From NCBI GenBank assembly GCA_049970175.1, contig JBMFNL010000002.1, positions 2,722 through 66,721 of the forward strand: DNA of 64,000 nt, given 5' to 3'. A model generated the notes under the pieces. It was not told the origin of the DNA and made no database searches. It was given only the letters and a program-made list of their open reading frames with translations. Made by a program: the position numbers and the translations under genes. Of the stretch, positions 18,176-62,894 are shown in pieces; position 1 is the stretch's first letter, and every line of letters begins with the position of its first letter. This DNA is from Chloroflexia bacterium. Lineage in GTDB: Bacteria; Chloroflexota; Chloroflexia; DTKN01.

Positions 18176-18246
18176 CTGCCGGGCGAGGATTCGAACCTCG
18201 GCTAAAGGATCCAAAGTCCCCCGTGCTACCGCTACACCACCCGGCA
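18176..18246 (-). tRNA. tRNA-Gln (anticodon UUG)
   Basis: Hand-folded cloverleaf: acceptor stem TGCCGGG/CCCGGCA with the U1:A72 pair typical of bacterial tRNA-Gln; anticodon loop CTTTGGA; T-arm CGAGG-TTCGAAT-CCTCG; discriminator G; CCA not encoded. Confidence 0.75.
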
Positions 18247-47550: not shown

Positions 47551-49220
47551 CTACCGCACCCCCCACAGCCGCACCGTGCCGTCACGCGACCCTGAGGCGA
47601 GGAAGTTTCCGTCGGGGGAGAAGGCCACGCTAAAGACCCGAGAGGTGTGCTCCAGGGTGCGCAGGAGTTCGCCGTCGGCGGCCCGCCAGAGGCGCACCGT
47701 GTGGTCCTCCGACCCCGAGGCCAGGGTCTGCCCGTCGGGGGAGAAGGCCACGCTCTCCATTGGGGCGCCCGTTTCGATGAAGCGCACCTCCTCCAGGGTC
47801 TGAGCGTCGTAGAGGTACACCCCGATGGAAGAGGCCACCGCCAGGAATCGGCCGTCGGGGGAGTAGGCGATTTCGTGTACCATCCCCTTGCCCCAGCGGG
47901 CCAGTTCGCGCACCCGGTCGGCGTTCTCGGGAGAGAGGGCTGCGGCGGGTTGGGGCACGGGCGTGCCGGAAAGGACGGGAAGCGGCAACGGAGTCGGGGT
48001 AGGCGTCGGGGTGGAGGTGGATGTGGGCATCGGGGTCGGAGTGGAGGTGGCCGTCGGCGTGGAGGTGGGCCGCGCCGTGGGCCCGAGGGCGGCGACGGGG
48101 GTGGGGGAAACCGCCGGCCGGCCCAGCACTCCGCCCATGTAGAGGCCGGCCAGCACCAGGAGCACCACCGCCAGGAGGCCCGCCCCGGCCGGTACCCAGG
48201 GCCGTCGGGCGGCCCCTTTCCGCGGCGCCGCAGGTCGGGGCAGCGGTGGGGGGGCAGGCCGGGGTGGAGGTGGCGCCGGGAGCAACTCCGTCGCTACTTC
48301 GGTTTCCTGCAGCACGGTCTCGGCGCCGCCCTCACCCCACTCCCCCGGCCCCCTCTCCCCTCTCCCAATGGGAGAGGGGGTTGGGGGTGAGGGGTGAGGA
48401 CAGCGCCGCCGCCAGCGCGGCCATGTCCGGGTAGCGGTCCTCCGGGGCCTTGGCCAGCGCCTTGAAGAGCACCCGCTCCGCCGCCTCCGGCAGGTCCGGC
48501 GCGTAAGCCCTCGGCCGGGGAAGCGGCTCCGTGGCTTGCTTCAAAAGCACCGCCATCGGCGTATCGGCCGTGTAGGGCTTGCGCCCGGTCACCAGTTCGT
48601 AGAGCACCACTCCCAGGGCATAGACGTCGGCCCGGGCGTCCACCGGCCGGCCCAGCCCCTGCTCCGGAGCCATGTACTCCGGCGTGCCCACCCCCCCGTC
48701 CCGGTGAGCGTTGTCTCCTCGCTCTCCAGGAGTTTGGCGATGCCAAAGTCGGAAAGCATGGGCTCCCCGGAAAGGGTGATGAGGATGTTGGAGGGCTTGA
48801 CATCGCGGTGGATAAAGCCCCGCTGGTGGGCAAAGTGCAGGGCGCGGGCGATGGGGAGGAGCAGGCGCACCGCCTCCTCCCAGGGGAAGGGCCGGCCGGC
48901 CCGCGCCTCCAGCAACTTCTTGAGCGTCCCGCCGGGGAGATACTCCATCACCAGGTAGGGGGAGCCCTCGTGCTCGCCGTAGTCGATGAGGGCCACGATG
49001 TTGGGATGGGTCAGGCGGGCCAGGGCCTTGGCCTCCCGCTCGAAGCGCCGGAGGATGCGCTCCCGTTGTTCGGGGGGGAAGGCCCCCTTGCGGATGACCT
49101 TGAGGGCCACATCGCGCTCCAGCCGGGTATCATAGGCCCGGTAGACGGTGGCCATCCCCCTTCCCCCAGTTGCTCGACGATGTGGTAGCGCCCGATGGAC
49201 TGGCCGACGAGAGAGCCCAT
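47551..49220 (-). pseudogene. Hanks-type Ser/Thr protein kinase with TM helix and C-terminal WD40 domain, disrupted by three frame changes
   Basis: Successive pieces in different frames: MGSLVGQSIGRYHIVEQLGEGG | [10 protein letters not shown]...[10 protein letters not shown]...DFGIAKL...TGTGG | [11 protein letters not shown]...[10 protein letters not shown] | TM helix plus WD40 repeats. The breaks fall at a G5 run (~49156-49160, plus-strand C5), a G7 run (48689-48695, plus-strand C7) and inside the palindromic repeat (48331-48399). Confidence 0.55.
48331..48399. repeat. G/C-rich palindromic repeat element, copy 1
   Basis: CTCACCCCACTCCCCCGGCCCCCTCTCCCCTCTCCCAATGGGAGAGGGGGTTGGGGGTGAGGGGTGAGG; close to the reverse complement of copy 2; flanked by GCGCCGCC on both sides. 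Confidence 0.6.
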
Positions 49221-60990: not shown

Positions 60991-61638
60991 TCAGGCTCCC
61001 GTATCCCGGCCGGCCAGGCGGGCAAAGTCGGCGATGGCCTGCTGGGAGAGGGGGTGCTCGGCCATAGTGCGGATCAGGGCCGGAGGGAGGGTCAGGTGGT
61101 GGGCCCCGGCAGCTAGGCAGGCCAGGGCCTCCGGAACGTCGCGCAGGCTGGCGGCCAGGATTTCCACCGGCCGGCCGCTTCCCCGCAACACGGCGGCAAT
61201 TTCCTCAACCAGGGCGACGCCCCGTCCGGAGTAGCGGGTCATCCGGTTGACATAAGGGATAACGTAGCGGGCCCCGGCTTCGGCCGCCAGATAGGCCTGG
61301 GCGGCGCTGAAGACGGCGGTGGCGGCGCAGGGAATTTCGGCCGAGAGCCGGGCCAGGACGGCCAGGTTCTCCAGGGAGGCGGGAATCTTGAGTACGATCT
61401 GCGAGGGGGAGAGGGCGGCAAAACGCCGGCCTTCTTCCTCCAGGGCGCGCGGCTCGGTGGCCGTCGGCTGGTAGAAGACGGGACCGGGACAGAGGGCACA
61501 GAGTTCCGGAATGACCTCTTCGGCCGGACGGCCGGCCTGGGCGATCAGGGCGGGGTTGGTCGTCACGCCGGCGATAAAGCCCCAGTCCAGTGCCTCCCGA
61601 ACCTCCTCGATGCGGGCCGAATCGACGTACAGGGCCAT
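60991..61638 (-). CDS. transaldolase/fructose-6-phosphate aldolase family protein
   Basis: MALYVDSA...GVTTNPAL...KIPAS motifs. Confidence 0.8.
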   Translation of the reverse strand: MALYVDSARIEEVREALDWGFIAGVTTNPALIAQAGRPAEEVIPELCALCPGPVFYQPTATEPRALEEEGRRFAALSPSQIVLKIPASLENLAVLARLSAEIPCAATAVFSAAQAYLAAEAGARYVIPYVNRMTRYSGRGVALVEEIAAVLRGSGRPVEILAASLRDVPEALACLAAGAHHLTLPPALIRTMAEHPLSQQAIADFARLAGRDTGA

Positions 61639-62585: not shown

Positions 62586-62683
62586 CCAACCTCCTACGGT
62601 GGGCGTTCAGGACGACCCCATTATAGTTCCCTCGCCCGATTTGCGCAACCCGCACGGCGACCCGGCGCCGCCTGCCCTCATCT

Positions 62684-62749
62684 CTCACCCCCAACCCCCT
62701 CTCCCCTCGCCCATTGGGAAAGGGGAGGCTAGGGGGAGTGGGGTGAGGG
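62684..62749. repeat. G/C-rich palindromic repeat element, copy 2 (intergenic between acyP and rplI)
   Basis: CTCACCCCCAACCCCCTCTCCCCTCGCCCATTGGGAAAGGGGAGGCTAGGGGGAGTGGGGTGAGGG; its reverse complement aligns with copy 1 (shared CCTCACCCCACTCCCCC and GTTGGGGGTGAG ends). Confidence 0.6.
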
Positions 62750-62894
62750 AAAGGCCACATCCCGACAAACCTGGGACACATCCCACGGTGACGTGGGTTT
62801 GACGGAGGGGGGAGAATGTGTTAGACTGGTAACGCCGGTGGGACGGCGAGCGGACGTTCTTGCGGTTAGGAATTCGGAAAAACGAGGTGGCCCG

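Follow-up and report, generated by a model that had tools for sequence, protein, structure and literature searches.

What are the two G/C-rich palindromes found in a 64-kb stretch of Chloroflexia bacterium DNA (67.7% G+C; contig JBMFNL010000002.1, hereafter the window), one of them (copy 1) inside a gene for a Ser/Thr kinase and the other (copy 2) between acyP and rplI, and how did the first come to lie within a coding sequence? An earlier note, made from the sequence alone, had described the pair as reverse-complement homologues and suggested a MITE-like insertion (MITE, miniature inverted-repeat transposable element). We find that both sequences are probably copies of the BoxC/PIT/TM-type G/C-rich repeat, a non-coding dispersed element. 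BoxC/PIT/TM repeats have been known since the 1990s, and the element is an ordinary finding that belongs to this long-known repeat, not a new kind of element; the earlier note had not recognized this membership.

The homology of the two palindromes is borne out by both alignment and repeat finding. Copy 1 aligns with the reverse complement of copy 2 at ~80% identity, and a repeat finder reports the two as mutual inverted repeats (54 nt at 78% and 44 nt at 84%) and copy 1 itself as an internal palindrome with 39-nt arms (85%). On the + strand, copy 1 (48329-48399) reads CCCTCACCCCACTCCCCC GG CCCCCTCTCCCCTCTCCC AAT GGGAGAGGGGG TT GGGGGTGAGGGGTGAGG, and copy 2 (62675-62749), which is the more decayed of the two and is identical in the independent metagenome contig L001, reads CCCTCATCTCTCACCCCC AA CCCCCTCTCCCCTCGCCC ATT GGGAAAGGGGAGG CTA GGGGGAGTGGGGTGAGGG. 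The 17-nt arm CCTCACCCCACTCCCCC is exact in both copies, at 48330-48346 (+) and 62732-62748 (-), and both also have an arm of a second, TCA type, at 48383-48399 (-) and 62676-62692 (+); the spacers differ between the arms as well (GG/AA in copy 1, AA/TA in copy 2). The shared ends and the CCCAATGGG and CCCATTGGG cores are as the earlier note gave them, with the arms located on both strands. Its coordinates for copy 1 hold to within two bases, but copy 2 starts at 62675 and not at 62684, 9 nt of the outer arm (CCCTCATCT) having been missed. Repeat and pattern scans of the 64 kb revealed no third copy; an exact 11-mer that stands alone at 61044 belongs to ordinary coding sequence, and a palindrome pattern with a 4-nt loop has no match, the actual loop being 3 nt.

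Long hairpins are predicted for both strands of both copies. RNA folding, which had been proposed as a check, gives long stable structures with z-scores against shuffled controls of -7.5/-7.7 for the two strands of copy 1 and -4.4/-3.2 for those of copy 2; the corresponding DNA values are -6.8/-7.8 and -4.4/-2.9.

The unit of the repeat can be written as CCCTCACCCCC-NN-CCCCCTCTCCC-loop-GGGAGAGGGGG(-NN-GGGGGTGAGGG), with an extended 5' form, (C)CCTCACCCCC NN CCCCCTCTCCC. It is a polypyrimidine mirror repeat followed by a short variable loop and the complement of its inner half, the complement of the outer half being present only in full copies. A full-text search with the outer-arm string GGGGTGAGGG led to Holder et al. 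(2015, NAR 43:10126, PMC4666352), where the BoxC repeat of E. coli is the same as the PIT (potential intrastrand triplex) element and TM_ECO; that paper also cites earlier work on the PIT element (Hoyne/Maher 2000, as cited in PMC4666352). According to Holder et al., E. coli units have the form CCCTCTCCC-loop-GGGAGAGGG-NNN-GGGTGAGGG, and the TM_ECO pattern is 5'-CCCTCNCCC N3-6 GGGNGAGGG N3 GGGNGAGGG-3', of which there are 23 copies in MG1655, all intergenic and without strand bias, and 3610 across 262 proteobacterial genomes, the E. coli-type pattern being reported in their survey only in Proteobacteria. Two loop types (A and B) are always paired in inverted configuration in E. coli, neither promoter or terminator activity nor a link to transposons, phages or plasmids was found there, an isolated strand forms a stable triplex in vitro, and the DNA flanking the copies is unusually variable among strains (PMC4666352).

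When the second loop of this pattern is relaxed to 2-6 nt, copy 1 matches it (48358-48393, +), as do both E. coli units of the hrpB-mrcB pair (L147) and 36 other loci. None of 100 shuffles matches the BoxC-type pattern that copy 1 matches, which, together with the folding z-scores, argues that the match is not due to chance. The + strand of copy 1 also falls within the ITxF definition of a G/C-rich class II triplex motif (stems of 6-15 nt with at most one mismatch, loops of 1-6 nt, and G·G, A·A and T·A contacts), being divided as CCCCTCTCCC / AAT / GGGAGAGGGGG / TT / GGGGGTGAGGG. The mirror positions obey these contact rules at 11 of 11 (+) and 18 of 18 (-) places in copy 1 and at 15 of 18 (-) and 8 of 13 (+) in copy 2, and each window copy has at least four tracts of three or more G on the G-rich half of each strand. 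Either strand of the element, once single-stranded, would be expected to form a hairpin of ~30 bp, and its G-rich 3' half, which mirrors the stem strand, could fold back as a purine-motif third strand under the published rules or form a G-quadruplex.

Rfam at its gathering threshold reports only tRNA in the whole window, and at the element (E<=10) only generic hairpin (miRNA) models of no more than 47 bits against thresholds of 55-168; the BLAST matches of the element in plasmids, phages and E. coli genomes were short and unannotated. In the literature, the inner-stem strings led only to eukaryotic papers, and a search found no published description of the element in the host's phylum. A tRNA gene is located at 18176-18246 (-).

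The repeat extends far beyond this window. In a search of one genome per species, a 20-mer taken from the element, in which the two spacer positions may be any base (CACCCCCNNCCCCCTCTCCC), matches at least 120 genome stretches. Among the matches listed, the carriers include Chloroflexota, Armatimonadota, Acidobacteriota, Gemmatimonadota, Planctomycetota, Bacteroidota (Rufibacter), Ignavibacteria, Myxococcota, a cyanobacterium, a Latescibacterota metagenome-assembled genome (MAG), and Alphaproteobacteria (Hyphomonas, Brevundimonas and Henriciella). Near-identical copies thus defined occur in more than 10 bacterial phyla, in viral contigs and on plasmids, with a core of 22-24 nt conserved almost letter for letter; the possibility raised in the earlier note that only two copies exist does not hold, since there are many in other genomes and metagenomes. 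Although both features lay outside the search pattern, 112 of the 127 matches listed are followed by the complement GGGAGAGGGGG after a loop of 1-42 nt, and 109 are preceded by CCT; those without a hairpin partner are mostly bare and include two Streptomyces, one Acidimicrobiales and one archaeal match. Single units, composed of a hairpin and a conserved 5' tail, make up 80 of the 127 listed, and the other architectures are inverted doublets with a spacer (L004, L043, L099, L111) and fused palindromes.

Carriage on mobile DNA is possible, given that the 20-mer also turns up in 21 viral contigs (with the hairpin in 9) and on plasmids of cyanobacteria, Cupriavidus and Xanthomonas. In 12 of the 21 viral matches (L127, L131-L136, L140, L142, L144, L145) there is a 24-nt pyrimidine mirror repeat, CCCTCACCCCCTACCCCCTCTCCC, without the G-rich partner, and several of these are in AT-rich surroundings (e.g. 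L132, L136, L140); in these the core alone is thus conserved. Some family members elsewhere adjoin short tandem arrays, for instance at L013 4700-4840, with a 24-nt period (GAGAGGGGGAAAACGCGACAAAGC), and in Brevundimonas (L102 160-260), with an array of the 9-mer CCGTCTGAA.

The window copies are a long, fused inverted-pair variant in which the blocks are doubled to 17-18 nt (the inner G-block of copy 1 is 11 nt). A metagenome scan with the degenerate doubled outer arm found ~30 true long-form copies, after more than half of the matches had been set aside as poly-C or telomere-like low-complexity DNA; such copies come from many metagenomes. One of them, L255, reads CCTCACCCCACTCCCCC AA CCCCCTCTCCCCTCTCCC aaattt GGGAGAGGGGAGAGGGGG TT GGGGGTGAGGGGTGAGG, relative to which copy 1 has a shorter loop and an inner G-block shorter by 7 nt. 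Of 16 long-form copies, 14 have an ACT arm opposite a TCA arm, both window copies among them, and this asymmetry leaves two conserved mismatches in the hairpin. It implies that the element has a polarity and would be copied whole, not arm from arm, and it parallels the pairing rule of types A and B in E. coli.

Copy 1 interrupts the kinase domain at its conserved end, with AALAAAL (in full MAALAAAL) on one side and ETVLQE on the other, and it adds 23 codons and a TGA to the gene. In an alignment with 14 homologues the site reads ...(M/F)AAALE.L... and contains no insert. Excising the palindrome CCTCA...TGAGG alone (48330-48399, 70 nt) restores the frame as AALAAAL-CGA-ETVLQE, and excising 48322-48400 (79 nt) gives AALAAAL-ETVLQE. 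With no insert in homologues and the frame restored by the 70-nt excision, copy 1 is shown to be DNA inserted into the kinase gene.

The gene itself is a decaying pseudogene, as evident from two 1-nt deletions in G-runs that recur in independent assemblies, a truncated WD40 region and a strain-level indel. Its reading frames follow in the order 0 (ATG at 49220), 2, 1 and 2 (stop at 47551), and the frame-1 segment enters copy 1 and stops within it at TGA 48332-48334; the earlier note was right about the place of copy 1, which sits where kinase domain and linker meet, and about the frame change in it, but the gene is not a live kinase gene. Only ~3 WD40 repeats are retained, the homologues being 630-840 aa long. 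The sequence of frameshift 1 is also present in L125, a SPAdes metagenome contig from a different project (100% identity), and in the MAG contig L124, which carries that of frameshift 2 too and spans both sites without a gap. Sequencing error is rejected for frameshift 1 by the identical SPAdes contig from another project, and is made unlikely for frameshift 2 by L124. A further strain-specific 1-nt deletion is seen at 48108 (48108-48110, AAA vs AA) in contigs of two MAG assemblies. Exact copies of three window proteins are found in three NCBI assemblies and one ENA metagenome. Within the pseudogene's extracellular linker, a tandem family of 18/12-nt repeats at 47982-48068 (TSTPTATSTPTPMPTSTSTPTPTPTP) encodes a Thr/Pro-rich stretch.

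Assemblies of the same species break at this place. In GCA_049971335.1, contig JBMFLF010000232.1 ends at 48276, 53 nt short of the edge of copy 1, and contig JBMFLF010000074.1 starts at 48335, inside it, leaving a gap of 58 nt; a break at the left edge is what a repeat or a strong hairpin would be expected to cause. Several single-nucleotide indels lie no more than 800 bp from copy 1, and the strain-level indel lies at a distance of 220 bp; like the contig breaks, they fit the published link with local instability, without proving it.

Four other explanations were weighed. One is that the sequence belongs to the kinase protein itself as a translated low-complexity linker, a reading that draws on its location at a domain boundary, where linkers vary; yet there is an in-frame TGA within the element, the frame changes across it, and a non-coding spacer as well as non-coding DNA across phyla contain the same sequence. 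Of the 120 best homologous kinases, none carries WERG, GVRG, SPLTP or related peptides, so the earlier note was correct that recurring peptides such as ...PLAHWERGG are translations of the element, and its alternative of orthologues sharing the sequence in frame does not hold. The stop codon and the homologue alignment refute the linker reading, to which we give practically no credence. A role at the RNA level, as a terminator, attenuator, mRNA-stabilizing hairpin or small RNA, is very improbable. The predicted RNA hairpins are indeed very stable, a T-run follows 20 of 112 single units across phyla, and units outside long open reading frames (ORFs) mostly follow a gene end (median 55 nt) or sit between convergent genes, this gene-end trend being the only usable result from crude gene calls around 112 copies, which spurious long ORFs make unreliable where G/C content is high. 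The window copies, however, both lack a T-run, and they are located between two gene starts (copy 2) and inside a pseudogene (copy 1); moreover, the stems are conserved in sequence and not merely in pairing, no orientation bias is seen, E. coli copies showed no promoter or terminator activity (PMC4666352), and there is no Rfam family, the generic miRNA models scoring far under their thresholds.

The two remaining explanations concern how the element moved. A classical MITE would be cut and pasted by a DDE transposase acting in trans, with an 8-bp target, GCGCCGCC, duplicated in the kinase gene. Comparison with homologous kinases clearly marks copy 1 as inserted, the size of the element and its palindromic ends would suit a MITE, and GCGCCGCC does stand on both sides of copy 1, as the earlier note had observed; such repeats are found at ~0.1% of random window sites. 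The target-site duplication itself is not supported. Excising the element with one GCGCCGCC (80 nt), as a duplication would predict, leaves the gene out of frame (AALAAAPRPCCRKPK-stop), unlike excision of the bare 70 nt. An offset of 3 nt separates the right GCGCCGCC from the element, and the left one shares bases with it; the repeat is part of an alanine run (GCG-GCG-GCG), is partly self-complementary and can be read as an extension of the stem. There is no duplication at copy 2 or at 27 other full copies: in the flanks of 29 full palindromic copies no direct repeat is consistent, one of 7 nt or more occurs only at copy 1, and the flanks are instead significantly complementary, so that the palindrome tends to run on. 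Recent, near-identical long-form copies within one metagenome (L161, L175, L208, L218, L243) have direct repeats of no more than 3 nt. Direct repeats in the family are slightly enriched over permuted flanks (mean 2.2 vs 1.9 nt, with 3% of permutations reaching the observed value), a point in favor of duplication. No transposase or other protein recurs near the copies in 141 loci (all-against-all comparison of ORFs up to ~8-15 kb around each), where the ORF clusters comprise only generic families such as ABC ATPases and sigma factors, besides structural genes shared within one phage group, and Holder et al. found no transposon link (PMC4666352). What survives of the MITE-like insertion is the insertion; that the element is a MITE we consider distinctly unlikely. 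An element of the repetitive extragenic palindromic (REP) or REPIN type, with hairpins and a single-stranded tail moved on single-stranded DNA, without duplication, by a HUH/Y1 transposase (RAYT) encoded elsewhere, accords with the hairpin and 5' tail in 80 of 127 matches, the inverted doublets and fused palindromes, the exact 70-nt excision without a target duplication, and the mostly intergenic location of copies near gene ends. REP sequences are normally species-specific, and the window element is nearly identical across phyla. Neither the window copies nor the family consensus has a GTAG or CGTC tag at either end, and no Y1-type or recurrent protein was found near copies in the 141 loci, the rest of the genome not having been searched for one. 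We therefore regard a REP-type origin as unlikely.

For a BoxC/PIT/TM-type repeat, we propose that spread is rare and would proceed by way of a whole double-stranded or hairpin unit, since the conserved ACT/TCA asymmetry speaks against copying of one arm from the other; insertion would be precise, without target duplication, and performed by an enzyme not encoded nearby. It is a tentative and rather doubtful extension of this proposal that the BoxC/TM family is one truly mobile DNA element across more than 10 phyla and some phages, inserting precisely and without duplication as a structured (hairpin or triplex) unit, possibly by means of a host-encoded enzyme. If it is true, the kinase insertion would be one of the few directly readable insertion events of a 30-year-old orphan repeat.

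Several points weigh against the BoxC assignment and its interpretation as an insertion. The strict TM_ECO pattern (9-nt stems, 3-nt second loop) has no match in the window, failing only through longer G-runs, with two further bases on each side of a 2-nt loop (GGGAGAGGG-GG TT GG-GGGTGAGGG). Empty-site orthologues are lacking both for copy 1, whose reconstructed host kinase has homologues of ~50% identity at best, and for copy 2, where the neighbors of relatives upstream of rplI differ. A direct repeat of 8 nt or more, counted within 3 nt of a 70-nt interval, occurs at only ~0.1-0.4% of random window sites, and a model without duplication must call the one at copy 1 a coincidence. Only two copies are known from 64 kb, and dispersal in this genome rests on the family and not on a genome count. 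Triplex was not detected in vivo in E. coli (PMC4666352), and triplex or quadruplex in the window copies is a prediction. Neither copy contains a T-run terminator or a promoter-like site, and with moderate confidence we take them to be local copies, themselves without function, of a structured repeat that is selfish or neutral and inserts rarely and precisely, 'no function' here being an absence of evidence. Their effects in the window would be insertional disruption of a gene and possibly local instability, seen as indels and assembly breaks.

The surroundings of the two copies differ among relatives. For copy 1, an exact look-up of the WD40 ORF gave no match, and relatives with a CcmE at least 90% identical have no kinase at the syntenic place and different neighbors upstream of ccmE. 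Copy 2 is intergenic, as had been reported, between the starts of the divergent acyP (-) and rplI (+), and ends 50 nt upstream of a promoter-like site of rplI. It is absent upstream of rplI in relatives with an L9 at least 90% identical; these were rejected as a clean empty site owing to their different upstream gene. In spite of that gene, the promoter-like site and the GGTAA that follows are nearly letter for letter the same in these relatives (L148-L154). Just downstream of rplI, the DnaB gene of this species is called with 657 aa and an intein-splicing domain (L001 1323-3296), and that of the relatives has 448-454 aa and no intein (L148-L154, 3495-4862). The coordinates of all features are collected in Table 1.

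Table 1. Positions in the window of the two palindromes, their parts, and the features around them.
Feature	Position	Strand	Remarks
Ser/Thr kinase-transmembrane-WD40 pseudogene	47551-49220	-	From frame analysis and homologue alignment
Left GCGCCGCC	48323-48330		Overlaps the first two C's of copy 1; pairs with the right flank as a hairpin extension
Copy 1	48329/48330-48399	no strand	Palindrome of 70-71 nt
Copy 1, outer C-arm	48330-48346	+	ACT type; followed by spacer GG
Copy 1, inner C-block CCCCCTCTCCCCTCTCCC	48349-48366	+	
Copy 1, loop AAT	48367-48369	+	
Copy 1, inner G-block GGGAGAGGGGG	48370-48380	+	Followed by spacer TT
Copy 1, outer G-arm GGGGGTGAGGGGTGAGG	48383-48399	+	Complement of TCA-type arm
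Right GCGCCGCC	48403-48410		3 nt past the end of copy 1; in Ala-codon run GCG GCG GCG
Frameshift 2	48691-48697	-	G-run of 7, short by one base; activation segment (after TGTGG)
Frameshift 1	49156-49160	-	G-run short by one base; glycine loop (GEGG/MATVY)
Copy 2	62675-62749	opposite to copy 1	75 nt
Copy 2, outer arm CCTCATCTCTCACCCCC	62676-62692	+	TCA type; followed by spacer AA
Copy 2, inner C-block	62695-62712	+	Followed by loop ATT
Copy 2, inner G-block	62716-62728	+	Degenerate; followed by CTA
Copy 2, outer G-arm GGGGGAGTGGGGTGAGG(G)	62732-62749	+	Complement of ACT-type arm
rplI promoter-like site	62799-62827	+	TTGACG, 17 nt, extended -10 TG-TAGACT; context, outside the element

For annotation, the element should be masked as a repeat, as it is a source of spurious ORFs and peptide 'motifs' (including those of GVRG type), and 'pseudogene' is the right label for the kinase gene that hosts copy 1; for assembly, it breaks short-read contigs, as in the two contigs of one same-species MAG noted above. 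Three data points are new: the same core in Chloroflexota, Armatimonadota, Acidobacteriota, Gemmatimonadota, Planctomycetota, Bacteroidota and viral contigs; a long form, doubled, in which the asymmetry of the arms is conserved; and one copy inside a coding sequence with clean boundaries. These are modest and leave the picture of the element unchanged, and they could guide a genome-wide study.

Among known systems, bacterial MITEs (e.g. Nezha in Anabaena/Nostoc, PMC3184786) resemble the window element in being small, with inverted ends and a stable predicted fold, and in landing in genes and giving spurious ORFs, but they have a cognate insertion sequence with the same ends and constant direct repeats, neither of which was found for it in the loci tested. 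The REP/BIME/REPIN group likewise comprises short G/C-rich extragenic palindromes, as singlets and inverted doublets without duplications or coding capacity; the window element differs in its lack of a GTAG/CGTC tag, in having no RAYT near its copies, and in its conservation across phyla. The HPG1 and HPG2 motifs of E. coli, described as a 'G-quadruplex-hairpin-duplex switch' (Kaplan et al. 2016, PMC5100583), are the same DNA, GGGAGAGGG-TTA/CCG-GGGTGAGGG preceded by its C-rich partner; there it is seen as four G-tracts whose possible quadruplex competes with the hairpin. They constitute another interpretation and not a separate family. The closest likeness is to BoxC/TM_ECO, with the same blocks (CCCTC(T/G)CCC, GGGAGAGGG and GGGTGAGGG) in the same order of C-block, loop, G-block, short loop and mirror G-block, the same G-block mirror rule, a variable first loop, two unit types in inverted pairs, and no orientation bias, linked mobile-element gene or assigned function. 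The differences are that the blocks of the window copies are 11-18 nt and not 9, and the second loop 2 nt and not 3; that in E. coli the G/C tails face each other over a 17-nt spacer, whereas in the window the tails are outside and one central hairpin is shared; that the host is a Chloroflexia MAG and not a proteobacterium; and that copy 1 is within a (pseudo)gene, whereas all 23 copies of MG1655 are intergenic.

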